From positions 1 to 64,000 of IMG/VR virus record IMGVR_UViG_3300038558_000079: a DNA stretch of 64,000 bases; one strand, written 5' to 3'. This DNA comes from a virus. The position numbers were made by a program, and so were the translations under genes. Numbering within the stretch: the first letter of the stretch is position 1; every line of letters begins with the position of its first letter. Below are positions 4,039-47,431 of the stretch, piece after piece. Below the pieces are notes generated by a model. That model made no database searches and had not been told where the DNA came from. It saw only the letters and a program-made list of their open reading frames with translations.

Positions 4039-4082
4039 CCTCTCCCCGGTCTAAAGACACGGGGCTTTCAGCGACTCATCTT
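4035..4082 (-). mobile_element. 48-bp single-hairpin IS200/IS605 mini-element (PATE-like), copy A
   Basis: Reverse complement reads TTAC|aagatgagtcgctgaaagccccgtgtctttagaccggggagaggTCAA, i.e. the left and right ends of 12210-13846 fused through the shared hairpin. Confidence 0.9.
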
Positions 4083-10557: not shown

Positions 10558-10728
10558 ATGAACACACCAAAAAAAGAGATAAGTATTTACGATATCGCCT
10601 ATTTCAATTGGCTGAGAAAAATAGTTGTGGAGACTCACCAATTGGAAGTAGAGAAAGTTGCAGCAGAATACAATAGGAAACTTGCTGAAACTAAAGTAGA
10701 GGGAACCATTGACCTCTCCCCGGTCTAA
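10558..10728 (+). CDS. Small hypothetical protein, C-terminus altered by mini-element B
   Basis: MNTPKKEISIYDIAYFNWLRKIVVETHQLEVEKVAAEYNRKLAETKVEGT then IDLSPV* from the element. Confidence 0.55.
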   Translation: MNTPKKEISIYDIAYFNWLRKIVVETHQLEVEKVAAEYNRKLAETKVEGTIDLSPV

Positions 10729-10756
10729 AGACACGGGGCTTTCAGCGACTCATCTT
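10709..10756 (-). mobile_element. 48-bp single-hairpin IS200/IS605 mini-element, copy B
   Basis: Identical to 4035-4082, followed by GTAA (TTAC target). Confidence 0.9.
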
Positions 10757-10999
10757 GTAAGAATTAAGCCCTGGATAATACTAGCTGTTATCCTTTGGTG
10801 TATGGTGCAACACTTTAGATGCAGAGTGAATAGCAAGAAAGTTATTTGACAGTGTGGGGTTTTTATGCCCGGTAAATATTAGTAAAGTTGAGAAATGGCA
10901 GTGACACAGCGTAACGTACATCGACCCATACAGTAGTCAAATGAACAACTTTGCATTAAATCCGATAAAAATCCCCGAATCCCTCTCTCTATACACCTT

Positions 11000-11057
11000 C
11001 TGGCTTCCGACATGTTCTATCCTATATAGTAATTGAAAACAACATGTCGGAAGCCAG
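11000..11057. repeat. Dispersed palindrome copy 5
   Basis: ctggcttccgacatgtt-N24-aacatgtcggaagccag; both arms carry complementary changes. Confidence 0.97.
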
Positions 11058-11144
11058 GAGTTAATGCAGGCAAAGGATGTAGCGTTTTCGAGAACCAAGT
11101 TTTAACAACCTCAAAAACACCGCTAAAATACCCTTTTACACCCC

Positions 11145-11173
11145 TTGACATCTTAGAGGAATTGAATTAGTAT
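11145..11173 (+). promoter_or_regulatory. Cassette-associated sigma70 promoter upstream of omegaRNA
   Basis: TTGACA-17-TAGTAT. Confidence 0.75.
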
Positions 11174-11179
11174 GGATAC

Positions 11180-11440
11180 AGTAAAACAAAAGAAAGCAAA
11201 GTCAACAACCCCGGTCTAAAGACACGGGGCTTCCAGCCTAAAAAACTGAAGCCCGGAAGTTGACCAGCCTCAGTCGCAAGACTACGTTATCGGTAAGCGT
11301 TAAAGTTCATACCAGGAAATGCGAAGCTAGTTTCCTGCTCTAGAACCGAAAAGTTAAACAGGCGTAACGGGTTAAGTCAGTGCTTTTTGGATAGTACCGA
11401 CCGATAACATTGGCGAAGCTAACTTTACTCCGAAAGGAGA
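11180..11440 (+). ncRNA. HEARO / IscB omegaRNA with a 5' guide derived from flanking DNA
   Basis: gtcaacaacccc..ggggctt..gttgaccagcctcagt..gactacgttat..atacc.ggaaatgcgaagctagtttcc.gctcta..gttaaaca..cagtgc..ataacattggcgaagctaactttac matches the HEARO consensus order; ends approximate. Confidence 0.85.
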
Positions 11441-11570
11441 TTGAGGCAACCATACCTCACCGGAGGGGCAACCATACCCCTCCACCCTGAAAGGGGCAGG
11501 CGGTTAAAACCGCTTCCACATGTTCCTCTCCGGTCTAAAGACGCGGAGTTTCCCACAACGAAGGAATTTT
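11201..11570 (+). mobile_element. Non-autonomous IscB-type IS200/IS605 element lacking iscB
   Basis: Terminal hairpins ccccggtctaaagacacgggg and ctccggtctaaagacgcggag; flanked 3' by ATGA. Confidence 0.85.
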
Positions 11571-11813
11571 ATGACACCTTACCAACATTGTATCGAAACA
11601 GTACAGTTACTCCCTACAGTCTTTGTAGTCGCTTATGTGAATTGGTTAGGGGACTGGGTGATGGACACTCAGGAATTCAGAACAGAGAAGTCTGCACTGG
11701 CGCATAGTAGGGTTTTAGCCAAGACTAAGGCTGAGAACGGACGGGTTAGTGTCAGGAAAGTTATTAGTTCCAAGTTTAAAAGAGCTAAATTGCAACAGAA
11801 CACAAAACGTTGA
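11571..11813 (+). CDS. Hypothetical protein (80 aa)
   Basis: ATG immediately after the element, with an element-supplied AAGGA RBS. Confidence 0.65.
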   Translation: MTPYQHCIETVQLLPTVFVVAYVNWLGDWVMDTQEFRTEKSALAHSRVLAKTKAENGRVSVRKVISSKFKRAKLQQNTKR

Positions 11814-11838
11814 CATTCTCCGGTTTTTGTGTTAGACT
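11810..11838 (+). promoter_or_regulatory. Sigma70 promoter for candidate ncRNA 1
   Basis: TTGACA-17-TAGACT. Confidence 0.65.
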
Positions 11839-12268
11839 TACTTATGACATAAGTTCTCGACACTAGCATAAAGGTTAGTGAGTCCCCTGAGAAGAGAACC
11901 CTAATTTCTTTTAAGTTACCCAAGTCACAGACAGGCTTGGGTAACTTAACCGTATGCCATTGCACGCTTTGAGCGTTTTCAGGGAATGGTTATTCATCTA
12001 GTGGTACTTTTCGACGTTTTTCAACGATGCGTCACCACGATCGCGACCGTTTTGTTGCCTACCTTCCCGTAGCTCACCCCTTTGTTGTAATTGCGCAGAA
12101 CTGTGGGGCGATCGTCGGACATGTGTCACCCGCTGGGGCGACAGCTACTGTAGTAAGCATCCGGTCTTCCTTTGATAGAGTCCACGAAAGTGAAGCCGAA
12201 GTACTTTACAAGATGAGTCGCTGAAAGCCCCGTGTCTTTAGACCGGGGATGAAAGCGCTTTGCAGGAT

Positions 12269-12457
12269 TTATCCTACCTTCCAGATCTCGATCAATTCAG
12301 GTAACGCCGATCTTAGCCGCTCTTGCCAATCAGGGACAGATTTTAATTCTTTGGCTAATTCTACATCCATCCTTAAGCAGACTGGACTACTGACCAATGG
12401 TTTTTCTCGGTTAGTCGTAAAACCTTGTTTATGTTTTTTCTGAAATGGCATTGACAT
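12269..12457 (-). CDS. Small RHH/CopG-like protein in the IS
   Basis: PVCLRMDVELAKELKSVPDWQERLR beta-helix-helix pattern; divergent from tnpB. Confidence 0.55.
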   Translation of the reverse strand: MSMPFQKKHKQGFTTNREKPLVSSPVCLRMDVELAKELKSVPDWQERLRSALPELIEIWKVG

Positions 12458-12514
12458 CTTCTAACTACATGCGTATACTTATATTATAAGTCCGAAGCAG
12501 GAGGTGTCAATAAG

Positions 12515-13813
12515 TTGTACGGATGCCAACAGAATTTAATTAGTCCCACTCCAGAATTAAAGGCAATCCTTGAGTTTATCTGTTCAGAATCACATAAGCT
12601 GACTAACTGCGGTATCTACTATGCCCGTCAGTTATATTTCAAGACTCGTAAGTTAATTGGTAAGTACGACTTAGAAAAAGAGTACAAAGCCAACAAGCAC
12701 TATCAGGTCTTGCATTCTCAAGCCGCACAGCAAGTATTGAGAACAGTTGCTGAGTCTTTTCAATCTTTTAAGGAGTTAGATAAGAAGTACAGCAAGGGCG
12801 ACTTACATTTTAAACCCAAGCTGCCCAAATACCGTCAAGGCGCTGGTTATGCTCTAGTGACTTATCCTAAACAAGCTTTAAGACTTGTAGGTAACAATAT
12901 CAAAGTTCCGCTGGGCACGACAGTAAAAAGATGGTTTAAACTTGAATATTTCTTGTTGCCAATGCCATCCAATTTGGAGTTTGAGGACATCAAGGAATTG
13001 CGGATACTCCCACGTAATCAATGCTTCTATTCTGAGTTGGTCTACAAACAGAAACCAGCACCATCAAACACTTTCAATCAAAATAATGCGTTAGCAATTG
13101 ACCCCGGTATCAACAACTGGTTAAGCTGTGTATCCAATGTGGGGACTAGCTTCATTGTTGATGGACGTAAAGTTAAAAGTCTTAATCAGTGGTACAATAA
13201 GCGCGTTTCCACTCTCAAGGAAGGTAAACCACAAGGCTATTGGGATGAGCAGTTAGCCCAGATAACTGAAAAACGCAATCGCCAGATGCGTGACGCTGTT
13301 AATAAGGCGGCTAGATTGGTTGTTGACCACTGTATTAAATACCATATTGGCACGGTTATCTTTGGGTGGAACCAAGGACAACGGCAAGAGGCTAAATTAG
13401 GTAAAACAACTCAGGCTTTTGTTCAAATACCAACAGCCAAATTAAAAAAACGAATTGAACAACTGTGTGAGTATCACGGAATTAAGTTTGTTGAAGCAGA
13501 AGAATCTTATACTAGCAAAGCTAGTTTTCTAGATGGTGATTTTCTACCAACCTACGGCGAAAAACCCGAAACGTGGAAGCCAACAGGAAAACGAGTTAAA
13601 CGTGGAATGTACTGCACTGGCAAAGGTGTTCTAATCAACGCTGATTTGAACGGAGCCGCCAATATAATGCGGAAAGTAGAGACACAACTGGGCTTAAGTC
13701 TAGTCAAGGTCTGTAGGGCATTATTGACCGTGCCTACCAGATTTAAAATCTGGGAAACCAAAACCAAAAAGCGGAACCGGACGGCTTTAGCCTCCGGTGT
13801 AGCAACAGTTTAG
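12515..13813 (+). CDS. tnpB: RNA-guided endonuclease TnpB
   Basis: AIDPGINN, IFGWN, EESYTSKAS, NADLNGAANI. Confidence 0.95.
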   Translation: MYGCQQNLISPTPELKAILEFICSESHKLTNCGIYYARQLYFKTRKLIGKYDLEKEYKANKHYQVLHSQAAQQVLRTVAESFQSFKELDKKYSKGDLHFKPKLPKYRQGAGYALVTYPKQALRLVGNNIKVPLGTTVKRWFKLEYFLLPMPSNLEFEDIKELRILPRNQCFYSELVYKQKPAPSNTFNQNNALAIDPGINNWLSCVSNVGTSFIVDGRKVKSLNQWYNKRVSTLKEGKPQGYWDEQLAQITEKRNRQMRDAVNKAARLVVDHCIKYHIGTVIFGWNQGQRQEAKLGKTTQAFVQIPTAKLKKRIEQLCEYHGIKFVEAEESYTSKASFLDGDFLPTYGEKPETWKPTGKRVKRGMYCTGKGVLINADLNGAANIMRKVETQLGLSLVKVCRALLTVPTRFKIWETKTKKRNRTALASGVATV

Positions 13814-13945
13814 AATCCCCGTGTCTTTAGACCGGGGAGAGGTCAAAGTGATTTGAAGTTCTAGCAGTAGCAGTCTCATCTGACACTACCCCAATGGTAT
13901 GCGGTGTAAGGGTTTTAGGAATCTAAAGATTATTTTATAAAAGTA

Positions 13946-13974
13946 TTGACATTACCTGAGTAACGAGCTATAGT
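13946..13974 (+). promoter_or_regulatory. Sigma70 promoter, duplicated at 14214-14242
   Basis: TTGACA-ttacctgagtaacgagc-TATAGT. Confidence 0.8.
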
Positions 13975-14003
13975 AGATATAACGAGAAAAACAGGAGACA
14001 GCA

Positions 14004-14231
14004 ATGATTAAGTTTAGCGACTTGATTGGGAAAACCGTAAAGATTGTAGATGTTAAAAAATCTGATGAAGATGAAGACTCAGCATCTTCACAAGAACTCG
14101 TACTGGAGGTAGATGGTGTCCGGTATACCTTGGAAGCTATTGGCTACAATTACGGGGACGATCCTCAGCAGGACGTTTTTCTCTGTGACAACACAGAGAT
14201 TCGTATAAAAGTATTGACATTGCCTGAGTAA
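14004..14231 (+). CDS. Small acidic protein, tandem paralog 1
   Basis: MIKFSDLIGKTVKIV...VRYTLEAI; GGAG RBS. Confidence 0.75.
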   Translation: MIKFSDLIGKTVKIVDVKKSDEDEDSASSQELVLEVDGVRYTLEAIGYNYGDDPQQDVFLCDNTEIRIKVLTLPE

Positions 14232-14270
14232 CGAGCTATAGTAGATATAACCAAAAAAAGGAGACAAGCA

Positions 14271-14459
14271 ATGATTAAGTTTAGCGATTTAGTTGGGAAG
14301 ACTGTGAAGATTGTAGGGGTTAAGGGTTCAGAGTATGATGAAGACGATGAGTATTCAAAAGGAATAGTAATAGAAGTAGAAGGTGTCCGGTACACCTTAG
14401 AAGCTATTGTTTTCGGGTACGGCGATGATGCAGAGATTTGGCTCTGCGAAAAACACTGA
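14271..14459 (+). CDS. Small acidic protein, tandem paralog 2
   Basis: MIKFSDLVGKTVKIV...VRYTLEAI; promoter and RBS duplicated with it. Confidence 0.75.
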   Translation: MIKFSDLVGKTVKIVGVKGSEYDEDDEYSKGIVIEVEGVRYTLEAIVFGYGDDAEIWLCEKH

Positions 14460-16315: not shown

Positions 16316-16605
16316 AATAATTCTCTGTTAATGTACTTCTATATTTTAACATTTTAGTACCGTAAAATCAATAAAATATCACAGGAAATATGTAATAAGT
16401 GAAGTCAATTATCCGCATTTCTAGCATCATGGGGAATGCCTAATTTTGGTCTTAATTCCCCACAATTCAGATTGAATGTCAAGATATTAGAGCTATTGCA
16501 ATCACGACTATATAATCACAGCCGGGTTGTGATATTGCCAGACACGGGGATGTTTTTTCCTCACCACCCGTGTATGCTATTTCTAAGATTATTTCCCCAT
16601 ACATT

Positions 16606-16662
16606 CTAGCTTCCGACATGTTGTATCCTATTATAGATAAAGTAGTAAACATGTCGGAAGCT
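16606..16662. repeat. Dispersed palindrome copy 6
   Basis: ctagcttccgacatgtt-N25-aacatgtcggaagct. Confidence 0.97.
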
Positions 16663-16827
16663 GAGAGTTAATGCAGGCAAAGGATACAGCGTTTTCTGAA
16701 CTCAAGTTTTAACAACCTCAAAAACGCCTCTAAAATACCTTTTTATACCCCTTGACATCTTTGACTAACATGGCTCTATCCGTTGGTATTTGTGGTATTG
16801 TACACGGCTAGAGCATAATTGACTTGG

Positions 16828-17145: not shown

Positions 17146-17253
17146 AAATCCCCTTTGTTGTTTTCTCTATTCTATGTCAAAACACACAGGTAATGTCAAC
17201 ACATTTCATATTTTATCTTCCCAAACTGCTATACCCTAGACACTGTATACCTT

Positions 17254-17309
17254 CTAGCCTCCGACATGTTTACTTCTTTATAGATATTGAACACAACATG
17301 TCGGAAGCT
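17254..17309. repeat. Dispersed palindrome copy 7
   Basis: ctagcctccgacatgtt-N24-aacatgtcggaagct. Confidence 0.95.
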
Positions 17310-17539
17310 GAGAGTCTTACACCGAATGCGTTGTAGGCTTTTTGTGAACCAAGTTTTGAAAAGTGCTTTGGGATGCCCTTCCCTGTCTGTTTTCTCTAAT
17401 GACGGTTGTGGTGAGGGGAGTTTCGAGGTATGATAGGTATCGTGTAGATAACCCTCATAAGAACACCACCGTCGCTGGAAACTCCGTGTCTTTAGACCGG
17501 AGATGAAGGCGCGGCAGCGGTTTTAACCGCCTAGAGTCT

Positions 17540-17944
17540 TTAACTGTGATGTGGATCATTGATGTACCTCTGAATTGTTTCAGCGCTCACATTGCCAGCC
17601 GTTGAGAAAAAGTAGCTGTTAGTCCACAAAGATGGAAGCTTTTGAAGCTCTGGAAACTCCTTTCTCAGGTAATTGGCTGAACGCCCTTTAAAGGCTTTTA
17701 CCACTTGGTAGATAGCATCAGTTGGATGAATCTCAACAAATAGGTGAATATGGTCAGGAGCCACTTCAAGCGCCCTAATGCGCCAATCTTTCTCCATTGC
17801 CAATTCAGAGAATATCTCGTATATTCTGTCTCGAATTTTACCCACAAGCACCTTTTTGCGACGTTTCGGTATCCAAACAAAATGAACCACGCATAACCCA
17901 ACAGAATGATTATAGTGCCTGTACTCGTATGAATTTTTTCGCAT
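17540..17944 (-). CDS. tnpA: IS200/IS605 Y1 transposase TnpA
   Basis: HFVWIPKRRK, PDHIHL (HUH), LWTNSYF, IQRYI. Confidence 0.96.
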   Translation of the reverse strand: MRKNSYEYRHYNHSVGLCVVHFVWIPKRRKKVLVGKIRDRIYEIFSELAMEKDWRIRALEVAPDHIHLFVEIHPTDAIYQVVKAFKGRSANYLRKEFPELQKLPSLWTNSYFFSTAGNVSAETIQRYINDPHHS

Positions 17945-18010
17945 TTTATCCCCGGCTGGCTTGACTGTTGTTCTTATTGTAGATTATAATAGATAAACCA
18001 ACAAAAGCCA

Positions 18011-19348
18011 GTGAGGTCGAAAATGGCTAAAAACAAGAAACAGCTAGGCGTTCAACAAATACTACTCCATCCCGACAAGGAGACAAAGGCTGTTCTTGAA
18101 TATTTGTGCGAACAGTCCGGTAAGCTGTACAACAGTGGGGTGTATTTTGCGCGTCAAACATTTTTCAAGACTGGTAAGTTACTGACGGGAAAGTTTGACT
18201 TAGTTTATGAGCAAACTGTAGGAAAAAGTCAGATTGCTCAGTCCTTACCGTCAACACCTGCGCAGCAAACATTATTGAGCGTCACCGAAGCGTTTAAATC
18301 CTACAAGGAATTGCGACAGCTCTGGGTTAAAGGACAATTGTCAGATAAGCCAAAACCACCTAATTATTTGAAGGGGTCAAAACTATTTAAGGTGGCATAC
18401 CCTAACTCAGGAGGTCAAAAGCCAAAAACAGTTGATGGGCAACTTCAATTCTCTCTCGGATTAACAGTTAAGCGATGGTTTGGCGTTGACAATTTTAAGC
18501 TACCGATACCAACAAACCTGGATATAACCAAAGTTAAAGAGTGGACAATACTTCCTAAAAATGGTGCATTTTATCTTGAAGCTTCCTACACTCTCGCTCA
18601 AGAGCAAACTTGTCGAGAATTTGCCAATCAAGCATTAGCAATTGACTTGGGTACTGCTGACAACTTAGCAGCTTGCGTTGACACATTAGGCAACTCTTTT
18701 TTGATTGATGCTCGTGCGATGAAAGCTTTCAATCAGTGCTGGAATAAACAAGTAGCAACCAGAAAAGAAAAAAAACCTGAAGGGTATTGGGACGCATGGC
18801 TTGACCGTGTAACTCGTAAGCGCAACCATCGAGTGAGAGATGGTATAAACAAGGCGGCAAGGATTATTGTTAGCCATTGTCTCAAGTACAGAATCGGAAC
18901 AATCGTCATAGGCTGGAATGAAGGCTTTAAGTGCAATGCCAATATGGGTAGATTGAACAATCAAAAATTTGTCCAAATACCATTGGGTAAGCTTAAAGAT
19001 AGGATCGAGCAATTGTGTGACTTGTATGGCATTAGGCTTGTGATAACCGAAGAGTCCTACACAAGCAAAGCTAGTTACTTAGATGGAGACTCCCTACCCA
19101 AATATGGTGAAAAACCAGAAGGGTGGAAAGCATCAGGTAAAAGAACAAAGCGCGGGTTGTACACAAGCAAAAATGGCTCACTAGTAAATGCGGACTTAAA
19201 CGGTGCCGCAAACATAATGAGCAAAGTAGCCAGAAAGCTAGGCATTGACTTAGCCCGACTGGGTAGACGGTCTTTGACAACCGTAACGAGAATCAGATTG
19301 TGGGTACTACCTCAGTCTACTCTGTCTGTAGAATCCCCGTGTCTTTAG
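18011..19348 (+). CDS. tnpB: RNA-guided endonuclease TnpB
   Basis: AIDLG, VIGWN, EESYTSKAS, NADLNGAANI. Confidence 0.95.
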   Translation: MRSKMAKNKKQLGVQQILLHPDKETKAVLEYLCEQSGKLYNSGVYFARQTFFKTGKLLTGKFDLVYEQTVGKSQIAQSLPSTPAQQTLLSVTEAFKSYKELRQLWVKGQLSDKPKPPNYLKGSKLFKVAYPNSGGQKPKTVDGQLQFSLGLTVKRWFGVDNFKLPIPTNLDITKVKEWTILPKNGAFYLEASYTLAQEQTCREFANQALAIDLGTADNLAACVDTLGNSFLIDARAMKAFNQCWNKQVATRKEKKPEGYWDAWLDRVTRKRNHRVRDGINKAARIIVSHCLKYRIGTIVIGWNEGFKCNANMGRLNNQKFVQIPLGKLKDRIEQLCDLYGIRLVITEESYTSKASYLDGDSLPKYGEKPEGWKASGKRTKRGLYTSKNGSLVNADLNGAANIMSKVARKLGIDLARLGRRSLTTVTRIRLWVLPQSTLSVESPCL

Positions 19349-19434
19349 ATCGGGGAGTGTCAAAAACCACTGATGAAAGTCATTTTCCTACTTGACACCC
19401 TTTTGCAAACGAGTAAAAAACTTTCAAGCACCCC

Positions 19435-19463
19435 TTGACATCCATTGAGAGTTGAGTTATTAT
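19435..19463 (+). promoter_or_regulatory. Sigma70 promoter for candidate ncRNA 2
   Basis: TTGACA-17-TATTAT. Confidence 0.7.
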
Positions 19464-19468
19464 AGTAG

Positions 19469-19800
19469 AGAGCATAAAAGTTCTACTCAAATGCTCTTTC
19501 TTGTAACCCTAACGGGTGGGTTAACATACCAGCGAGCTGGATTCCGGTAATACGGAAAGACAGTAGTGGTTTGCAAACAACCTCGGAGGCGATAACTGTC
19601 TCGCCTAAGTCCATTACAACAGGAATGCCGAGGCTCTGGAAACAGGGAGCCGGGACGAAAAAACCGTGAAACCGCGATACTCCCCATTGCTGTAGACAAG
19701 AGAGAAAATTAAAGTACTGCTTTTATACCGCGATCGCACCCAACGTTGGATTAGCTCATCTTGCATACAAAATCCCCACCTGTAAAGGTTGGTATTTTTT
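19469..19800 (+). ncRNA. Candidate structured ncRNA 2 (core ~235 nt, terminator-like stem at 19771-19800)
   Basis: Nested helices 19496-19504/19696-19704 and 19560-19569/19684-19693 with G-U pairs, several hairpins including ctg-GAAA-cag; no plausible + strand ORF. Confidence 0.6.
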
Positions 19801-19955
19801 TACACTACAAAATACCAGCTTACTTTTAGCTGCAAATTTATAGCATCGAACATCACAGGGTAGATTTAGCTCAATTAACTGAGTGTTACTAACCCAGAGT
19901 AGTGTTAAAAAGCAGGGTGTCTGAAAGGCCATGATTCTTACACTGTATAGTTTTC

Positions 19956-20004
19956 AGCTTCCGACATGTTACCTACAGTTACTATAAAAGAAGAGAACAT
20001 GTCG
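19956..20004. repeat. Dispersed palindrome copy 8 (right arm degenerate)
   Basis: agcttccgacatgtt-N25-aacatgtcg, 14 bp before TTGACA-18-TATAAT (20018-20047). Confidence 0.9.
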
Positions 20005-20074
20005 TAAAGTTCTTATATTGACATTTCCCGAATAAAAACTGTATAATGTAACTACAGTACATCGGATACCATAT

Positions 20075-20782
20075 ATGATTAGTAGATTACCAACCCAAGG
20101 GTTACCAGTAGAACTTCGGTCTGCATACTTCCATAGGATATGGGGGGAAGATGAGAGTATTGTCACTCAACTCTCCCAGCGGCAACAGCAAGCACTCAAA
20201 CTGTACTATGGATTGTTAGGGGAAAACCCACACCGGGTAAGGGAGATACAGGAAATCACAGGTAACAAGAATCATTCTTTAATTAGGTCATTGTGCTTAC
20301 AGGCATTTACAGCCTTGCAACGCAAAAAACAAAAGAGAATATGTGAACAGTTGGGAATCACCACAAAGGAGATACCTGTAAGCCTGAGAGCGGCCTATTA
20401 TCAGGCTATGTATTTCAATCTCGATTTAACTGAGGGATATGAAAAAATCCCGGTAAAGACTAAGAAAATATTCCAGTCCTATTATGCAGAGATAGGTAAG
20501 TGTCTTAGTGTTGAAGAATTAGCTTTTCGATATCAGTTAACACCAAAACGGGTGTTAAAGTTGATTTCTCATGCAGAGGACGCTCTGGTAGAGATTGCGC
20601 AGGCAAAGGTAGCTAGTACCATGTACCAGGAGTGGTTGAAAGTTACGAAAAGGTATTGTCCTAATTGCTTTTCAACCAATGTCACTCCACTTTACTCTCA
20701 GGGGCGACGGAACGGGTTAAGGTGTTTTGAATGCAATAAGCCAGTTTCACTCAACAGTTTCGGTCTGATTAGACTGGCTTAA
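20075..20782 (+). CDS. Sigma70 region-4-like HTH regulator with C-terminal zinc ribbon
   Basis: LSQRQQQALKLYYGL..., second HTH-like repeat, CPNC...CFEC. Confidence 0.65.
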   Translation: MISRLPTQGLPVELRSAYFHRIWGEDESIVTQLSQRQQQALKLYYGLLGENPHRVREIQEITGNKNHSLIRSLCLQAFTALQRKKQKRICEQLGITTKEIPVSLRAAYYQAMYFNLDLTEGYEKIPVKTKKIFQSYYAEIGKCLSVEELAFRYQLTPKRVLKLISHAEDALVEIAQAKVASTMYQEWLKVTKRYCPNCFSTNVTPLYSQGRRNGLRCFECNKPVSLNSFGLIRLA

Positions 20783-22129
20783 GTTAAGATCTATAGTTCC
20801 TTCAAGCCCTAGATTAAGCGCTAGGGCTTTTCTAATCTCATCAGAAGTAATAGCACCTATCTCTTTATAAACAGCACGTTCCTGGGCTTGAAGATTTGCT
20901 AGTTCCTGCTTCTCCTTGGCAGTTTCCTCGTAAATTACTGGGAAGTCAATCTCCCATACGCGGGGTTCTATACCACCAGTAACCCCATTTTTGCAGAAGT
21001 GGTATAGTTTTACGAGCCTTTCCAAGGGTTCCTTGAGAACTTCCTTCTGATATTTGAGTATGGTTTGGTTCAATTCTTTTGTTTCACTCTCACCACTAGT
21101 AATTCCAGATGGTGATTGGTTAAAGAAGGATGTGTGCGGTATTTCCGTATTTGCACCCAAATCTTCCTTTAATATTTTCATCATGTCTGCAACACCCGTA
21201 AAGTTACGACTAACAATCTCGTGACCGTCAGTAGTATCCAGTAACCAGACATTTAGCACTGATGAGATGTAGTTCATCACCTGTAATCTTTGCTCAACTT
21301 CCTTACGCCTATTCTGAGATAGTAGGTTAGAAAGTCCAGCCATCTTTATCAGCATTCTGTTGAAATCTTGTATGGCTACTGCGATAGAATCCTTACCCAA
21401 ATTATAGTCTCTAAGATCGCTATATGCTCTTACAAGTACACTTAACCCAAATCCACCATACCTCTCGCGCGAGCGCTGCACACCAACGTCGATGCCTTTG
21501 AATGCTAGTAGTCTACTCTTATGTATCCGTGTACCATACCCATTTGAAAACTGGTACAGTAGAGGTTCACCATAATCTCTTAGAGTAGGCTCATCTTGGT
21601 AAGAGTATACCGAGACTTGACCGCCAATACCACCCGATTGCACATTAAGCCATTCAATGTCTTTTAGCCTCTTAGTGTCTAGCGGTAACTCTAAGTTTGT
21701 TGCACCATCATTGCACCCTAAGACGATTACACTACCGCCGTATTTCCTAGCCATGCTCATAGCTTTATTGAAATATGGCATTGCCTTATTGATTAGTTGT
21801 TGCATTTCCGCGATCGCGTCACCACTGCCATTCTTCCCTACAGCAACATCTCCAATGTCTTTAATTGTATAGATGGGGTTTTTTCGGGTACACAAACCGG
21901 GTAATTGCTCTACAAGTTTTGCAGCATACTTATCACCTTCAAATAGGTTATCAATGTCTGAAAATGATAATACTTTTGGTGGTTTTATTATTACCGCTTC
22001 TCGCTTATCGGCATTCTGCATTCCAATCTTAGTTGCTAATGATGCTAAGATTGAATCTAATCTCATCTGAGTAGCTATTAGTTCTTGTTCTGTAGTCTCG
22101 TTAGTATTTACTTTTACATTAATTGCCAT
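20747..22129 (-). CDS. Phage portal protein (DUF1073 family)
   Basis: ARKYGGS, RIHKSRL, G.SVL..AY, IPHT.FFNQSP.G...GES; follows terL. Confidence 0.88.
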   Translation of the reverse strand: MAINVKVNTNETTEQELIATQMRLDSILASLATKIGMQNADKREAVIIKPPKVLSFSDIDNLFEGDKYAAKLVEQLPGLCTRKNPIYTIKDIGDVAVGKNGSGDAIAEMQQLINKAMPYFNKAMSMARKYGGSVIVLGCNDGATNLELPLDTKRLKDIEWLNVQSGGIGGQVSVYSYQDEPTLRDYGEPLLYQFSNGYGTRIHKSRLLAFKGIDVGVQRSRERYGGFGLSVLVRAYSDLRDYNLGKDSIAVAIQDFNRMLIKMAGLSNLLSQNRRKEVEQRLQVMNYISSVLNVWLLDTTDGHEIVSRNFTGVADMMKILKEDLGANTEIPHTSFFNQSPSGITSGESETKELNQTILKYQKEVLKEPLERLVKLYHFCKNGVTGGIEPRVWEIDFPVIYEETAKEKQELANLQAQERAVYKEIGAITSDEIRKALALNLGLEGTIDLNLSQSNQTETVE

Positions 22130-22133
22130 ATAT

Positions 22134-23669
22134 TTAATTTAACCACGCATCGAGGACATCTTCATAACTATAACTTGGTGCAAAAAGCATTGCTAGCATA
22201 TCTGCAAAGTCAGGACTATCAATGCCTCTTTTTCGCATTTCAGCCTTACTCTCTAGCAATATCTTACCACTACTTGTATATTTGCGTTTAGGTAGTGAAA
22301 TCTGAGCAATAAGGTCAGGGTGATTAGGGATACTGATTAATTCATCAAGGGGATATGCTTTAATACCAGTGGTGTGTTCGTAGGTTTTTTTAAATCGTTC
22401 GCGCAATAATCCCCACCATTCGGCTCTAGCATTCGCAAATTTCTCTTTACTAGTCCGTTGTTCACCCTCCCAATAGGTGTCACTTGGGGTAGCAGCACCT
22501 CGTAATGGGATAAAGGCAAATGGTAAACCACCCTCTATAGATGCTAGGGTAGATCCGACACCTTCCCCAACACCATCAGCATCAAAATTAAGCATTGTGG
22601 CCTGAAATTCGATCATTAGTTCCCGTACCTTAAAAGCACTTTCAGTGGTTCCCACACCACTCCAGTCTTCAAGATGTGTTACTGTGCCCCCCACTCTAAT
22701 CCCTAGTACGGTTCTATTTTTTCCAAAAGTGGCAATATCCAGACTTCCCACAGGATTGCCTACGATTGGTAATTGTAGTTCCCTACTAGCCATTACCCAT
22801 TTGTTTGGAATATATACATTCTCAACGGATGCGGTATAGTCTATGTCAATTTCCTGAGCTACTGTAATGGGGTCTAAGCAGTTGATTTGTTTTTGATACC
22901 AGTATTCATTCTTGCGCGGGTCATCTTGCCACTTAAAAGTGAATACTTGAACCTTGCCACTGAAGCGTTTTTTTGCGTAACAATTCCCCAGGCCATTTGG
23001 TGTTGACGTGTAGAATATGACATCAGTATTTTGGCTCAATGCGGCATCTACACTAGCCGCTCTCTCGATAAATGCAAATTCATCGATGTCATAAATTGTA
23101 CTTCGCCCCCCACGCCCCAAGTTATCTCCAGCTTCCCCTGTAATTGTTCCACCCGTATGTGGATTAATAATTCTTAAGTAATTATCATGTACATTCCAGT
23201 TAAAACCCTGTGGTAACATCCAGTAGGGGAGATATTTTAATATCATCCTAATTTTTTCAAAGATACTATCTGGATCGCCTTTCCTGTCTACTAATATCTC
23301 TTTTCGGGAACCGAATGCACCCTTAAAGTTAGCATCAAACAACCAGCAATGCGTTTGGTAGGCTACATTCAACCACGTTAGCCCCATATCTCTGGACTTT
23401 TCAATCAATCCATGTTCTTTATTATGTACCCTTTCATCGCGCCATTTTAAATATTCTACCTGCTTAGGGAATAGTACAAAAGGGATAAAAGCAGGCTTCT
23501 TACGCGGGTCGTAAGTGTAGACAAAATTGTTAACCCAGAATATTTTATCGCGTCTGGATAGCTCAAGACATAATTTGCGGAATTCTTTATCAACCTTACA
23601 TTTTTCTAGAAGTTTATACCTAGCGATTAACCCCTCATTAATTGTGTATTCCTTGGCTACTTCTATCAT
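22134..23669 (-). CDS. terL: Terminase large subunit
   Basis: IEKSRDMGLTW, IDEFAF, STPNG, DADGVG, SPDFADML. Confidence 0.93.
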   Translation of the reverse strand: MIEVAKEYTINEGLIARYKLLEKCKVDKEFRKLCLELSRRDKIFWVNNFVYTYDPRKKPAFIPFVLFPKQVEYLKWRDERVHNKEHGLIEKSRDMGLTWLNVAYQTHCWLFDANFKGAFGSRKEILVDRKGDPDSIFEKIRMILKYLPYWMLPQGFNWNVHDNYLRIINPHTGGTITGEAGDNLGRGGRSTIYDIDEFAFIERAASVDAALSQNTDVIFYTSTPNGLGNCYAKKRFSGKVQVFTFKWQDDPRKNEYWYQKQINCLDPITVAQEIDIDYTASVENVYIPNKWVMASRELQLPIVGNPVGSLDIATFGKNRTVLGIRVGGTVTHLEDWSGVGTTESAFKVRELMIEFQATMLNFDADGVGEGVGSTLASIEGGLPFAFIPLRGAATPSDTYWEGEQRTSKEKFANARAEWWGLLRERFKKTYEHTTGIKAYPLDELISIPNHPDLIAQISLPKRKYTSSGKILLESKAEMRKRGIDSPDFADMLAMLFAPSYSYEDVLDAWLN

Positions 23670-34741: not shown

Positions 34742-34848
34742 TTTTACACCGTTTTACCCCGTCATCCGCCAGTGTAGCACGAAACCCAGTGGTATTTTAC
34801 CGTTGTTCGGTTTTAGTATCCCAGAAACGCTGCATCACATACTCTGTA

Positions 34849-34918
34849 TACTTCCTAGCTTCCGACATGTTGTATTCAATATCCATAAAGAAGTAAACAT
34901 GTCGGAAGCTAGGAAGTA
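34849..34918. repeat. Dispersed palindrome copy 9 (arms extend to 23 bp)
   Basis: tacttcctagcttccgacatgtt-N24-aacatgtcggaagctaggaagta. Confidence 0.97.
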
Positions 34919-38000: not shown

Positions 38001-38366
38001 TTATCTCTTAGACAACGGCTTGAGAATGAGAAGGACTTACTAGGAATAGCTCTAACAGGGCATATCCTGGATGAGTATAAGTTAGACGCTGTGGTTTTGA
38101 AGAATTTAGAAGTGGGGCAAGTATTAGAGGGTGTAATTGTAATTTCTGAAATGAGAAGTTATACCCAGAAAAATGGCGGTATTATGGGGTTTGTGACCTT
38201 AGAGGATATCTTGGGTAATAAGCTAAAGTGTACCGTATTCAGTAGTGCATGGTCTATCTCAAAAAGTTATATCCAAGTAAATACCCCATTGTATGTCAAT
38301 GTGAAAATTGGTACATACAATGGGGAAATTAATGGGATTGTTAACCGAATTAAGAGACTAAATTAA
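35082..38366 (+). CDS. dnaE: DNA polymerase III alpha subunit, unsplit
   Basis: PHP HAHSYFSLLD/ALTDHG, GRGSGGG, PDIDVDF, KMDILGL, YQEQ, GYSFNASH, C-terminal OB fold; start may be a later Met. Confidence 0.96.
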   Translation: MSNNNNDCHSITSPNLMSQVMRTSNRSYSRKTTGFVGLHAHSYFSLLDAFRSPTELVKCVAELGQPAIALTDHGGLWGTVELMIACEKYGITPIAGNEMYLKDDAATQRLKEYVGDGDYKVKSRYHQSVLAVSRTGYENLCKLTSDSYLKTSEKVKGKVYPLVTKEDLARHKEGLVLTSGCLAGLVCQGVLSGDLEFAKDTAKWYKDTFGDNYYIELQDHGIEDDQRKVNLHLVAIAEELEIGLVVTADSHYVYPSQKVSHKHFLRINKGEKFSNVYKGDFWHPSESEMDSRLVYLPDWAREQAMDNTVLIAQKVQPYTLASKPASPKFTLPMGTTPDEYLEQLCLKGLERIGESANPIYIERLYYELGILKLKGLADYFLIVQDYVNWAKAQKIPVGVGRGSGGGALACYVLNITTIDPIKHGLIFERFINPERESYPDIDVDFCMERRHEVVAYLQDKYGVGNVANIITFNKMESRSALKDAGWVLGVDFTVQNIFSKSLPVIRGKNIKLKNIIEDPTLAPEFMAHYEANAVVHCNVTFREWVDLAVALEGTVKSTGIHASGLIIGDESLSSIIPLQCTPDGTITSQYNMNEVEYMGILKMDILGLKTLTILDKAMKYIGGDYYDLEKIDINDSNALNLLATTSPVGIFQLEAAEKMIHLVKPTTFEEVADVTSLIRPGCFDMSMHNEYTAVKFGHSEPTYCTEKLRGILGSTHSQCLYQEQLLRICTEIAGFSLGYADNVRRGCGKKKKEVLEPLKESFVKGCLGNGESQEVADELWEIILASAGYSFNASHSKAYTIISMYTAWVRYYYPAQFFAALLSGQKDVEKFAEYSTALKLHNLKLIPPDINTSDSDFLPINDGVLFGLAYINGLGEKTLGDVFSERAKGKFLSPIDFFSRVKVSQATAQKLIKAGAFDSLESNRGKLLENLPDIFNWLSTHRKFAQKEQTTLAIPGIDWGNYLVVPTLKDSPQLSLRQRLENEKDLLGIALTGHILDEYKLDAVVLKNLEVGQVLEGVIVISEMRSYTQKNGGIMGFVTLEDILGNKLKCTVFSSAWSISKSYIQVNTPLYVNVKIGTYNGEINGIVNRIKRLN

Positions 38367-41300
38367 GCACTTATCAGTTTCACAAGCAACTAGTACATTA
38401 GGTAAATCAACGGTGTCATACTTCAGGAGCGCATCTTCAAAATTCTTAATAGAACGCCGCCGTCTCACACCATCTACGAGAGTGTTGTAAACCTCTTCAG
38501 AGATAGGTTCAAATGGCATCCTAGGGAAAGTTTGTTTACTCTCAAACCGCGCTAGTAGCGCTGCTGAGATATATCCTTCGTCATCTTGAATTGCTTGATA
38601 GATGGCATTTCCCAAAGGCTCTATCTCAGCTTCTGTGAATTCCAGAGTGCTACTCGTATTGTGCCCCACATAATGTTTCTGGACTTGCATCATGAAGTCG
38701 AATTGTGCCAATGCTGAAAAATTCCCTACATCTATATCTGCAACACCCACTAAAGTAGACCATGGTGCAGCTACAGGAATCTCTACCAACCATTCAGTAC
38801 ATCTGGGGTCATAAGGATCATCCAGTAGGTTCCCAGATTCATCACGGCTAGATTGTGAGGGGATGACAGTATACCCGTAATCGATACAAGCCAGAGCGAC
38901 CGGATTGTCTCTGGCAAAGGTAATCCGACGTATGTACCAGGTTCCCTTTGGAGGATGCCACCCTGGTGAGCTATTTGATAGTAGCGATTGTGTTCCGCTA
39001 GGTTTTACGGTAGTACACCGATTAGGAGTTTTGAGATTATGACGTTTGCAGTAATCTGCCACGTCATTCTCTACAAACTTTTTCCATTTCTTGAGACACC
39101 GTACCTCTACATCATGAAAGGTGTCACTCAAATATACACCCGTCTCAGTTTCACCCCATTTACTAGCACGTCCTGCTTCCCACCAGCGAAGCCAATCAAC
39201 ACCGAAAAGTTTCACAAAGAAATCAAAAACCCCAGTCATTCCCACCCCTACAATGGGGTCAAGTTCTCTGGATTCTCTCAACTTCTCATCAACAAATTCG
39301 TGGTGTAGTAATGAACATGCCCATAAGCTTGCTGCTTTAAAAGCACTTTTTTGTTCCTCAATATCAAAGGGGTCTATCTGCGACAGGTGGACTTCTGACA
39401 AGTTGCACAAGTTGTCTTGTAGGATTATCTCACCACATGGATTCAGGCCATAGATATTCATCCGATAATCAATATCATCATCGCTAGAAGCAAAACTTCT
39501 CAGATACTCTTTAGCATCAGTAGGATTGGAGTTATAAAGTCTCAAGAATTCTACCTTCTTTTCACTAGTATCCAGTAAATCTACATTGCTACGTGCGATC
39601 GCCTCTGGAGCATACTGTATTGCACCTTCGCCTGAATAATATTGGCTTCTCACAGCTTCAATACACTCAGCTTGTGTAGGTTTCTTATGAAATACCCTAG
39701 TGTGATTTGCCATTCTCAGGGCATCTTTATCGGGGTCAATTGTCCAATTGCCATCTGAATCTACTTTCCAAAGATTTTCCTTAATCTTGTAGGAATCGGG
39801 GTCATTATCTGAAAATTGGCGCATTCCGGCACTATTAGATACCAACAATCCTTCACACACAAATTCGTGTATGCTGGCAACTTCAATATCGAAAGTATGC
39901 GCTGTTCTTACTTCGTGTTCTATGGATTTAACCTTAACAGGCACTAAATCGGTTGTAGTTGGAACTAGTCTTTTTAATGTTGTGACAATGACCTGTTCTT
40001 GATGACCACCATACCTGTAGCGATAACTACTTACCGTGGGTTTTACCATCTCAACCGGGAACCCGTGGTCTTTAAAAGACTTAGGGGTTTCTTTTTTATG
40101 GCTTAAATAATGTAAGGAATGCGTTGTTAAGAATGCAGAAGTTGCTTCAAAGGCATTTTGCCCAACAGTTACCAATTCCCCTTCCCATTTGTTAGTGCGT
40201 TTCCTTAATGAGGAACACAAACGTGTAGTAATTGCTAGGGATGAATAAAGAGCTTGTACCTGTCTGAGAAAATCTTTATGTGTTGATGTTACTAAAACAC
40301 CTTGCGAGTGACACCCATCGGCATCGGCTAACCCAGCTAAATATGCTTCGCGAATTTCCTTAACTCCCATCAAAATACAATCGGGTATTGACATTGAAGT
40401 AAAAGGACGCTTGAAGTTGCTAAAATACTCGTTAAAGGATTTACTGTTGAACTGTAGCTCAAACGCTTTACTTTTGCGTTGTTCGGGTGTTGCAAGAGAG
40501 TAGTCATTAATCCCAAATTCACATGCCACGCTGATTAGTTGCTCAAGAATTTGTGGGTGTTGTTCAGGAATACTAAATCTGACATTTGTACCATCCGAGC
40601 CAACACATCCATTCCCATGTAAGTAGCCTAAGAAATACGCTACTTTGTTAGTTAACGCTGGTATGGTGACGGTTTTTTTGTTTCTGGTTGATTGATTTTT
40701 GAATTCTGGTAATTCAGTGGGGATACCCGGTATAGACTGAGGGACAAAAACCAAACGATCTCCTGGTTTTAAATCTTTAGCTTTTACCATTTTATACCCA
40801 CCATAAAAATCACTTAATACTGCGATTTTATGTTCTGAAGTACATTCCAAAAACCCGTCTTCTGTTTTAATTCGAGACAACGTTTGCACACCTTGATCGA
40901 AAAAGTTAGTAACTGGGTAAAAACCCTTACTCGTTAATACGCGGTCTCCAATTCGGATTTTTTGGATTGGTACTAATCCTAATTGTGTATGAACCAATGA
41001 CTCACCAGGTAAACAGCGACGCACGTTACCCGATACTATTACTAATGATGGCTCATCAATTAACAGACAACACTCAGCACTGTTCAGCTTACGTCCTACA
41101 GCACCATTGAGAATTTTTACAATACGCGGGTATAGCTGAGGTAGTAATGTCGGATTAGCAATTCCACCGAACCCCTTTAACTTTTCACCTTGTTGTCGTA
41201 TCCCGCTAATGTCTATCTCTACCTCTATATCACCATCACCAGCTAGCAGGTTATCAGTTGCTAATTGGAGAAGGCTTAGATAGCTATCACACCAACCTTC

Positions 41301-41807
41301 ACGAGAATCACCAACTAGAAATAGGTACTTCCTGTCACCTACTACTTTTACAAAAGTCCTTTCAGTTCTAGCTTTAGAACTGCCAAACTCCCCTGTGACT
41401 TTCACATTAATAGTGTTGAGAACCGGCGGTAACTTCTCTATATATCGAGGTTCAATAACAGCGCCAGTACCACACCCTTGCATGGTAAGATTCATCATTA
41501 ACTCGAAAGCTTTTAGGGTATCTAGGTTAGATGATGAGCAATTATAAGCGCCATAGAAGTTTTTTGGAACCTTTACCCAGTCAGTTCCTCCTACCCAGAG
41601 CCAACGACCCGATGGTAAACTCTTAAGAGCTAGTGCGTTACTGTAAAGGAGGTGCTTTTCGTCATCAGTTAACTTGCCTAATTCGGCAATTCCGTGAGTG
41701 ATTCTCTCACAGGTATCTTGCCAATTTTCGCGGGTGTTATCTGGTTTAAGTCTTGAATAGGTACGCGAGAAGACCGGAGCCGCGCATGGTGCATTATTGG
41801 GAAACAT
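38358..41807 (-). CDS. nrdJ: Class II (B12-dependent) ribonucleotide reductase with intein
   Basis: PSGRWLW.GG, YNC, GNVRR|SAG, NPCGEI, TTVKPSGT, C-terminal CETDKC. Confidence 0.95.
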   Translation of the reverse strand: MFPNNAPCAAPVFSRTYSRLKPDNTRENWQDTCERITHGIAELGKLTDDEKHLLYSNALALKSLPSGRWLWVGGTDWVKVPKNFYGAYNCSSSNLDTLKAFELMMNLTMQGCGTGAVIEPRYIEKLPPVLNTINVKVTGEFGSSKARTERTFVKVVGDRKYLFLVGDSREGWCDSYLSLLQLATDNLLAGDGDIEVEIDISGIRQQGEKLKGFGGIANPTLLPQLYPRIVKILNGAVGRKLNSAECCLLIDEPSLVIVSGNVRRCLPGESLVHTQLGLVPIQKIRIGDRVLTSKGFYPVTNFFDQGVQTLSRIKTEDGFLECTSEHKIAVLSDFYGGYKMVKAKDLKPGDRLVFVPQSIPGIPTELPEFKNQSTRNKKTVTIPALTNKVAYFLGYLHGNGCVGSDGTNVRFSIPEQHPQILEQLISVACEFGINDYSLATPEQRKSKAFELQFNSKSFNEYFSNFKRPFTSMSIPDCILMGVKEIREAYLAGLADADGCHSQGVLVTSTHKDFLRQVQALYSSLAITTRLCSSLRKRTNKWEGELVTVGQNAFEATSAFLTTHSLHYLSHKKETPKSFKDHGFPVEMVKPTVSSYRYRYGGHQEQVIVTTLKRLVPTTTDLVPVKVKSIEHEVRTAHTFDIEVASIHEFVCEGLLVSNSAGMRQFSDNDPDSYKIKENLWKVDSDGNWTIDPDKDALRMANHTRVFHKKPTQAECIEAVRSQYYSGEGAIQYAPEAIARSNVDLLDTSEKKVEFLRLYNSNPTDAKEYLRSFASSDDDIDYRMNIYGLNPCGEIILQDNLCNLSEVHLSQIDPFDIEEQKSAFKAASLWACSLLHHEFVDEKLRESRELDPIVGVGMTGVFDFFVKLFGVDWLRWWEAGRASKWGETETGVYLSDTFHDVEVRCLKKWKKFVENDVADYCKRHNLKTPNRCTTVKPSGTQSLLSNSSPGWHPPKGTWYIRRITFARDNPVALACIDYGYTVIPSQSSRDESGNLLDDPYDPRCTEWLVEIPVAAPWSTLVGVADIDVGNFSALAQFDFMMQVQKHYVGHNTSSTLEFTEAEIEPLGNAIYQAIQDDEGYISAALLARFESKQTFPRMPFEPISEEVYNTLVDGVRRRRSIKNFEDALLKYDTVDLPNVLVACETDKCLI
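39834..41015 (-). mobile_element. Intein with LAGLIDADG homing endonuclease (394 aa)
   Basis: NVRR|CLPGESLV...FLGYLHGNG...YLAGLADADG...TFDIEV...HEFVCEGLLVSN|SAG. Confidence 0.93.
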
Positions 41808-47240: not shown

Positions 47241-47297
47241 CAGCTTCCGACATGTTGTTTTCAATTACTATATAGGATAGAACATGTCGGAAGCCAG
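47241..47297. repeat. Dispersed palindrome copy 10, in an inverted cassette (~47100-47430)
   Basis: Spacer is the exact reverse complement of the spacers of copies 3 and 5. Confidence 0.97.
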
Positions 47298-47431
47298 AAG
47301 GTGTACAGAGAGAGGGATTTAGGGATTTTTATCAGATTTAATGCAAAGTTATTCATTGGACTACTATATGCGATGATGTACGTTACACTATATCAGTACC
47401 AGATTTAAACTTTACTAATACCTACTGAGAC

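Follow-up and report, generated by a model that had tools for sequence, protein, structure and literature searches.

A 64,000-nt stretch of viral DNA (positions 1 to 64,000 of IMG/VR record IMGVR_UViG_3300038558_000079; hereafter the window) contains, at 19435-19801 on the + strand, a unit made up of a near-consensus promoter, ~330 nt without a conserved open reading frame (ORF), and a U-tailed hairpin. Our sequence-based analysis indicates that this unit probably encodes a stand-alone non-coding RNA (ncRNA), real and functional, of a new and narrowly distributed family; we put the chance that it is a real conserved ncRNA gene of a new family at roughly 65%. An original prediction, made from the letters of the window alone, had proposed a functional RNA of unknown class, and this is still the best reading: no Rfam family matches, the core is kept above the level of the adjacent gene, and the copies share no ORF.

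Layout of the RNA unit

The unit comprises the following features.

19435-19463 (+): promoter, with -35 TTGACA at 19435-19440, a 17-nt spacer, and -10 TATTAT at 19458-19463
19470-19487 (+): 5' leader, which pairs with the 3' linker in three blocks
19496-19704 (+): structured core, closed by helix P1
19705-19775 (+): 3' linker, which holds the partner strands of the leader and the palindromes GCGATCGC (HIP1-type) and CCAACGTTGG
19776-19801 (+): hairpin resembling an intrinsic terminator (19776-81 with 19786-92, U19790 bulged)

The promoter that the original prediction had claimed (TTGACA, 17 nt, TATTAT) was located at 19435-19463 with an 11/12 match, and its hexamers belong to a promoter cassette repeated at 11124-11152 and 16731-16759 (repeat family D10). 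The -35 hexamer is identical in all four full copies of the unit. The -10 hexamer reads TATTAT, TATTAT, TATAGT, and TATATT in these copies, with spacers of 17, 17, 18, and 17 nt, and TATAGT in two low-depth contigs (X17 and X10), always following the pattern TAnnnT. The promoter still looks functional despite its variable -10 hexamer, and transcription is predicted from the position of the latter to start at ~19469-19470. The leader would pair with the linker at 19470-73/19754-57, 19474-81/19719-26, and 19484-87/19713-16; 16 of these 16 pairs are kept in four of four copies, with two one-sided U-A/U-G changes. As read from the sequence, the terminator-like hairpin has six pairs, one bulged U, and a GUAA loop, followed by UA and seven U (19795-19801).

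No ORF is common to all copies, and indels of 1 and 2 nt separate close relatives. The ORFs present are of 32 aa in the window and a chance 80-aa ORF in a single relative (L057).

Conservation among relatives

The gene downstream of the unit encodes a 235-aa protein, for which seven relatives at 69-92% identity were found in a large protein collection. A pattern scan based on the alignment of this protein led to five metagenome loci, three of which reach upstream of the gene (L055, L056, and L057) and two of which are too short. The RNA unit was present upstream of the 235-aa gene in all three sufficiently long contigs, with 96, 92, and 87% identity over 655-744 nt. Across the 205 nt of the core (19498-19702), identity to the three relatives is 98.5, 98.0, and 93.2%, compared with 95.5, 93.8, and 84.9% for the adjacent gene and 96.6, 88.5, and 79.7% for the spacer at 19801-19948. 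In L057 the core differs from the gene at a Fisher p of 0.0015 and from the spacer at 0.00025, bearing in mind that the three conservation comparisons share ancestry and hence are not independent. The 5' 28 nt are conserved at 92.9-96.4% and the 3' linker (19705-19775) is 90.0-92.9% identical to the relatives. A homologue search had been proposed together with the original prediction as a check; in its outcome, the unit is kept in L055, L056, and L057, with its core above both gene and spacer.

DNA sequencing runs from wetland and freshwater sites (X1-X6) contain the phage. Two partial variants were recovered when contigs of four public runs were examined, and these variants belong to two other studies. 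X17, from a wastewater metagenome, covers 19453-19708 with 20 substitutions and three insertions, and X10, from a freshwater metagenome, covers 19431-19581 and 19638-19788. Single differences in X17 and X10 may be errors because the depth is ~4.

Predicted fold

The + strand from 19470 to 19800 folds at -99.9 kcal/mol (z -3.33), a value that none of 100 shuffles attained; for the 212-nt core by itself z is -3.83, which none of 200 shuffles attained. The helices of the predicted fold are as follows.

P1 (+): 19496-19504 with 19696-19704
P2 (+): 19505-09 with 19518-22
P3 (+): 19530-35 with 19687-92, in rivalry with a local hairpin, 19529-32 with 19537-40
P4 (+): 19542-46 with 19553-57
GGA/UCC (+): 19563-65 with 19681-83
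P5 (+): 19566-72 with 19669-75
P6 (+): 19581-86 with 19628-33
P6a (+): 19587-92 with 19601-06
P6b (+): 19610-12 with 19622-24
P7 (+): 19632-37 with 19646-51, sharing two G with P6

All helices listed in the original prediction can be drawn in the window, while about half of them hold in the relatives. Among the latter are the closing helix (P1), in which U-G becomes C-G at 19498 in L056, the invariant hairpin aaccc/gggtt, the hairpin ttccg/cggaa, which stands even though L057 changes all six loop bases at 19547-52, and the helix aggcga/tcgcct, which is held or supported in the relatives. In X17, C19545>T together with G19554>A keeps a pair of P4 (C-G to U-A), and C19544>T gives U-G. The remaining helices fared worse. 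The 5' hairpin agagcat/atgctct is interrupted by T19492>C in L056 (an A-C mismatch) and by C19496>G in X10 (G opposite G), and the hairpin ccagc/gctgg has an altered 3' arm in X17. The element ctg-GAAA-cag loses C19636-G19645 to a C-A mismatch in L057 and X17, where its loop is GAAU. Finally, the 10-bp inner helix (19560-69/19684-93) places G opposite G at 19564/19689 in three of the four full copies; in L057 it keeps 8 of 10 pairs, and forcing it costs 11 kcal/mol.

An alternative scheme that uses P3, GGA/UCC, P5, and P7 pairs 99.1% of cells with five further pair types across the four copies, compared with 97.1% and three for the scheme originally drawn. The alternative is also compatible with the loss of the CUGG arm in X17, and it fits the set of copies better as a predicted pairing. 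For 19687-92 there are two candidate partners, 19530-35 and 19560-66, and every copy largely permits both. The three-way junction at the centre (19581-19633) does not vary. Most changes fall in loops, at 19534, 19536, 19547-52 (as described for L057), and 19614-15, and there are changes that keep pairs, from U-G to C-G at 19498 and 19567 and from G-U to A-U at 19534.

Four other structural resemblances were considered and rejected. A hammerhead-like CUGAUGA...GAAA at 19370-19381 is without stem II and just forms one side of a hairpin; docking of a GAAA tetraloop into a CCUAAG receptor is inconsistent with the GAAU loop of L057 and X17; a pseudoknot of the P6a loop with 19559-64 does not survive in L056 and L057; and the likeness of 19676-19704 to the end hairpin of a neighboring insertion sequence (IS), 66% over 29 nt, is at chance level.

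Weighing an RNA gene against chance and DNA-level function

Several observations weigh against a functional RNA gene. The promoter match alone is weak evidence because a scan of 1.3 kb returned three promoter-like sites, with 2.5 expected from shuffled sequence. The U-tailed stem claimed in the original prediction keeps its pairs in four of four copies, with A19778>G in L056 turning an A-U pair into G-U, but a simple + strand terminator scan made no call at 19776-19801, which marks it as a weak terminator. Among the 20 runs listed for the stretch, none that contains it is recorded as RNA; run X19, marked 'RNA?', reaches only the promoter cassette (19432-19482), and run X7 reaches only 19839-20069. 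The strand bias in folding is not robust, the - strand giving z -1.87 in the window and -3.20 in L057, where the + strand gives -3.36. In the four copies not one of 54 pairs shows a change in both partners, RNAalifold likewise finds no such pair, and under both pairing schemes all 500 shuffles score at least as high for covariation as the real alignment; with four copies that are 87-96% alike, covariation cannot test the structure. The sole compensatory pair (19545/19554) comes from the single contig X17 at depth ~4, and X17 also carries G19534>T and G19568>A, which break pairs of the alternative scheme. The fold is therefore plausible and conserved in outline rather than proven, given the outcome of the shuffles and the equally good folding of both strands of L057. 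Lastly, the distribution found is one narrow phage clade, so the case for function rests on conservation over short evolutionary distances.

A spacer structured by chance, or a short protein gene, could be kept in this way through close kinship alone: the full copies are all at least 87% identical, their covariation is not significant, and 32-aa ORFs exist. Against this, the core is significantly better kept than gene and spacer in the two more distant copies, the changes avoid stems or preserve pairs, indels of 1-2 nt break every ORF, and the folding energy lies beyond all shuffles. We regard such an origin as unlikely.

The element might alternatively act as DNA, whether for packaging (a pac site), for replication (an origin), or as a set of clustered binding sites for proteins. 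Its distance is 1 kb to the portal gene and 2.3 kb to that of the large terminase; it contains the palindromes GCGATCGC and CCAACGTTGG, and in L057 it folds about as well on the - strand as on the +. A conserved promoter and a U-tailed hairpin nevertheless frame the element on one strand, and in the window the + strand folds clearly better than the -. The kept G-U pairs at 19498/19702, 19534/19688, 19567/19674, and 19637/19646 would be A-C on the other strand, and no iteron-type repeats were found in the element. A DNA-level role accordingly appears improbable, and an ncRNA gene of a new family continues to account best for these features.

Searches for a known family and for further copies

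The host of the phage is probably a filamentous freshwater cyanobacterium of the family Coleofasciculaceae, as suggested by the relatives in that family of two TnpB proteins encoded in the window, together with the cyanobacterial palindrome GCGATCGC. Both TnpB proteins have 84-90% identity to relatives in Limnofasciculus, Potamolinea, Symploca, Microseira, and other Coleofasciculaceae. By portal protein, the nearest cultured phage is Synechococcus phage S-CBS4, at 28% identity (best among GenBank phages).

No family in Rfam 15 explains 19470-19800, so the description as an unknown class stands. The only match at family threshold in the whole window was HEARO (RF02033) at 11201-11428, and its recovery at 157 bits indicates that the Rfam search works on this DNA. 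Lowering the threshold to E up to 10 for 19300-19950 yielded four matches to eukaryotic miRNA, snoRNA, or lncRNA families, at 10.6-24.5 bits compared with thresholds of 48-89, and L055, L056, and L057 gave no Rfam match. A blastn search of GenBank phages with the RNA found no match.

A covariance model of the RNA core (R1) was applied more widely. In the 90.5-kb virus record, searches with DNA and R1 recovered only the target copy itself. Run on the complete S-CBS4 genome with E up to 10, R1 gave no match, nor did it in five genomes with distant portal relatives. A sequence search of the five genomes with the closest TnpB copies gave one 19-nt match (E 0.056). BLAST of 401 genomes of the same order returned 12 short places of 21-45 nt in 11 genomes, 11 of them in the linker and terminator part with its HIP1-type palindrome and one, of 40 nt at 80%, in the 3' core; none was judged a homologue. 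Among 52 genomes of Coleofasciculaceae, R1 had matches at E <=0.1 in 12, the best at 21.5 bits. The three distinct sequences inspected (L065 scoring as L064) were taken as chance matches because they lie inside ORFs of 292-507 aa and cover the model in part or skip its centre.

Searches of IMG/VR with exact patterns gave 0, 0, and one 18-nt match within an unrelated gene, and those with the 235-aa protein, the portal, and alignments of each found no relative. The 235-aa protein found none among GenBank phages, and the portal search of the 401 genomes reached 35% identity at best. Full-text search of the literature, which cannot query sequence, returned no paper on the target RNA. Taken together, these searches found no credible copy in cyanobacterial genomes, TnpB loci, GenBank phages, or IMG/VR.

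Independence from the neighboring IS200/IS605 element

An IS200/IS605 transposon lies immediately upstream.

17461-19363 (+): IS200/IS605 element, upstream of the RNA and separate from it
17540-17944 (-): tnpA
18011-19348 (+): tnpB
17476-17504 and 19329-19357: IS end hairpins, with tnpA and tnpB between them

Both IS ends are placed to ~2 nt. The left end, after CATAA (17460), is deduced from comparison with L056, and the right end (...TCAA) lies at 19363 as originally claimed, since the homology of the relatives restarts at 19360-19364 in the L055 and L056 alignments. An RNA that belonged to the transposon, either as a TnpB omega or right-end RNA or as an IStron-like intron, might be expected in such a place: the RNA begins 107 nt past the IS right end, and the window is rich in IS605-type ends and also has, behind a promoter of the same type, an orphan HEARO RNA. 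The relatives speak against it. Where homology restarts at the IS end, the RNA is present with no intact IS beside it: upstream of the RNA, L055 and L057 lack an IS, and L056 carries just a ~300-nt remnant of one, further upstream and in opposite orientation. None of 40 TnpB loci from cyanobacterial genomes contained the RNA, not even those with TnpB copies 84-90% identical in protein, and a second IS copy in the window (12210-13846) has the same ends followed by different DNA and no such RNA. The HEARO and group I intron models are also without a match. The original argument that this is not the TnpB omegaRNA is thus correct, resting on the position of the RNA outside the element, the 40 empty TnpB loci, and the relatives without an intact IS. 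A transposon-borne origin is refuted as far as sequence allows, and we give it practically no weight.

In L055 the IS site corresponds to the loop of a small unit, a promoter plus a hairpin, that in the window is disrupted by the insertion. We read the IS200/IS605 neighbor as unrelated to the RNA and recently inserted into this small hairpin unit, which lies upstream of the RNA. This unit, a promoter with a 14-bp hairpin, occurs upstream of the target RNA once in L055 (1128-1232) and twice in L056 (820-905 and 930-1010), and in the window as its right half only (19364-19400). The window IS sits in the loop of the unit after CATAA, and the IS remnant of L056 adjoins such a unit; these units seem to be a preferred IS605 target.

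Relation to the downstream gene

The RNA is followed on the same strand by the next regulatory cassette and by the 235-aa gene.

19949-20047 (+): next regulatory cassette, with palindrome at 19949-20007, then TTGACA-18-TATAAT at 20018-20047 (12/12)
20075-20782 (+): 235-aa gene, with its own consensus promoter

Cobalamin and lysine riboswitches are transcription-terminating classes with large aptamers. The target likewise has a multi-junction core of ~200 nt, then a linker and a U-tailed hairpin, and one could envisage a cis-acting leader or riboswitch in which this hairpin gates transcription into the 235-aa gene. The arrangement of a large structured domain, linker, and terminator upstream of a same-strand gene suits that proposal, as do the two alternative upstream partners of 19687-92. 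However, a gap of ~270 nt intervenes, with a palindromic cassette, a terminator-like site on the other strand, and a 12/12 promoter, and L057 has an extra 83-aa ORF and a second copy of the promoter of the 235-aa gene inserted between RNA and gene. Unlike riboswitches, the target matches no riboswitch family in Rfam 15, and the predicted folds offer no core-terminator pairing usable as an anti-terminator. The perfect-promoter cassette and the extra gene in L057 argue that the RNA is not a leader of the 235-aa gene, and we consider that role doubtful.

Phage genome and neighboring elements

The IMG/VR virus record is 90.5 kb long and rated 71% complete, the window being its first 64 kb. Other genes in the window encode a tail protein, a DnaE-type polymerase, and a class II ribonucleotide reductase with an intein.

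20747-22129 (-): portal gene
22134-23669 (-): large terminase
38358-41807 (-): class II ribonucleotide reductase, split by an intein with a LAGLIDADG homing endonuclease

Five relatives of the portal protein have 49-69% identity to it. The phages that carry the RNA form a small, uncultured, siphovirus-like clade.

The regulatory cassette consists of a ~50-nt palindrome with CTTCCGACATGTT arms; in three cases a conserved TTGACA promoter comes after it. Its copies lie at 10989-11157, 16601-16764, and 17243-17362 with 19414-19442, and the palindrome alone occurs at 898-952, 19949-20007, 34841-34871, and 47281-47311. The cassette stands in front of the HEARO RNA, of a degenerate copy at 16752, and of the target RNA. 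Its layout is reminiscent of the mobile cassettes of promoters and stem-loops in T4-type phages.

The orphan HEARO element (11201-11583) is an insertion, as L057 aligns to 10859-11200 and 11584-12210 with ~15 nt between; no iscB gene was found among the ORFs scanned. A second RNA occupies 11810-12205 and 13847-13915, split by the IS at 12210-13846. This RNA is conserved at 90.7% in L056 (1-503) and 77% in L057 (1850-2251), and in L056 its position is immediately ahead of the target RNA, with only the IS remnant and small hairpin units between. The R1 model does not match it.

Two tandem paralogous units of ~268 nt lie at 13936-14162 and 14204-14429. They have the same promoter, TATTGACA...TATAGT, and each also has a ribosome-binding site along with a short ORF starting ATGATTAAGTTTAGCGA. 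Single-hairpin mini-elements at 4046-4062 and 10709-10760 are fused left and right ends of the 12210 IS.

Comparison with known RNAs

GOLLD and ROOL are large RNAs of 500-800 nt, often found in phages and prophages. The target differs from them in size (~330 nt, with a core of ~205 nt) and in its restriction to one narrow clade; it has no match to either Rfam 15 model, and no adjacent tRNA genes were found. Like these 'ornate' RNAs (cryo-EM preprint 10.1101/2024.12.08.627333 / PMC12286853), it is phage-borne, stand-alone, intricately folded, and non-coding.

The HEARO RNA (RF02033) of the same phage stands behind the same repeated promoter cassette and, like the target, is a multi-helix RNA of 200-230 nt with no adjacent nuclease gene. 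In contrast to HEARO, the target has no HEARO model match even at E up to 10, and R1 does not match the HEARO copy. The target has no variable guide-like end, both of its ends being conserved and mutually paired, and it is resident in all relatives, whereas the HEARO insertion is missing in L057. A TnpB omega RNA, which spans the 3' end of tnpB and the right end of the transposon and moves with it, would share with the target its place downstream of tnpB on the same strand. The target, however, is located entirely beyond the transposon end behind a promoter of its own, is absent from other copies of the element, and occurs without an intact one beside it. In an IStron, the group I intron core (RF00028) is at the 5' side of an IS605-type element, inside a host gene (PMC4227781). 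The target is instead 3' of the IS, outside the element, and in no gene, with no group I match at E up to 10.

The target joins a growing number of orphan RNAs in cyanophages. Among these, the manA and wcaG motifs (Weinberg et al. 2010, PMC2864571) resemble it as promoter-to-terminator units of ~200-340 nt in cyanophage genomes. An unannotated gap near terL in S-CBS4 (L072; 4525-4745, - strand) folds with z -3.18 and adjoins a putative tRNA gene, judged by eye; it is unrelated in sequence to the target RNA. R1 finds nothing in S-CBS4, and nothing found speaks for common descent of the target with these orphan cyanophage RNAs.

Proposed mode of action

We hypothesize that a host sigma-70-type RNA polymerase would start at the near-consensus promoter and produce a transcript of ~330 nt (19470-19801, +) ending at the U-tailed hairpin. 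The 5' leader would pair with the 3' linker to form a long stalk carrying the branched core of ~205 nt. With less certainty, the free RNA may act in trans, binding a protein or serving as a scaffold or decoy. A guide RNA is argued against by the conservation of both ends and the lack of a nuclease gene. An antisense regulator of phage genes is likewise disfavored because no complementary stretch in the rest of the window exceeds what chance would give, the top matches on the reverse strand being 11-15 nt (E >=1.4). If the ncRNA gene is real and of a new family, a protein-binding or scaffold mode is a tentative suggestion, held at somewhat worse than even odds, and it counts against this mode that it is favored by exclusion only.

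More speculatively, and at long odds, the RNA could be the RNA subunit of a new phage ribonucleoprotein acting on the host gene-expression machinery early in infection. It may then work with the 235-aa protein, whose features include a zinc ribbon at the C-terminus and a weak sigma-70 region-4-like match, and the two exclusive pairings of 19687-92 may constitute a conformational switch. If true, the target would be more than an orphan motif and would represent a functional class new among the 'ornate' RNAs of phages.

Significance

The practical value of the target RNA is limited for now by its narrow distribution. Since the target RNA lies here together with a second structured RNA, an orphan guide RNA of IscB type, and several IS605 elements, the region offers a compact setting for asking how a virus accommodates RNA genes alongside RNA-guided transposons. 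Annotation of phage genomes is almost entirely protein-based, and here an RNA is kept more strictly than the neighboring protein gene. Each family-less, conserved, independently transcribed structured RNA may represent a new means by which phages deal with their hosts.

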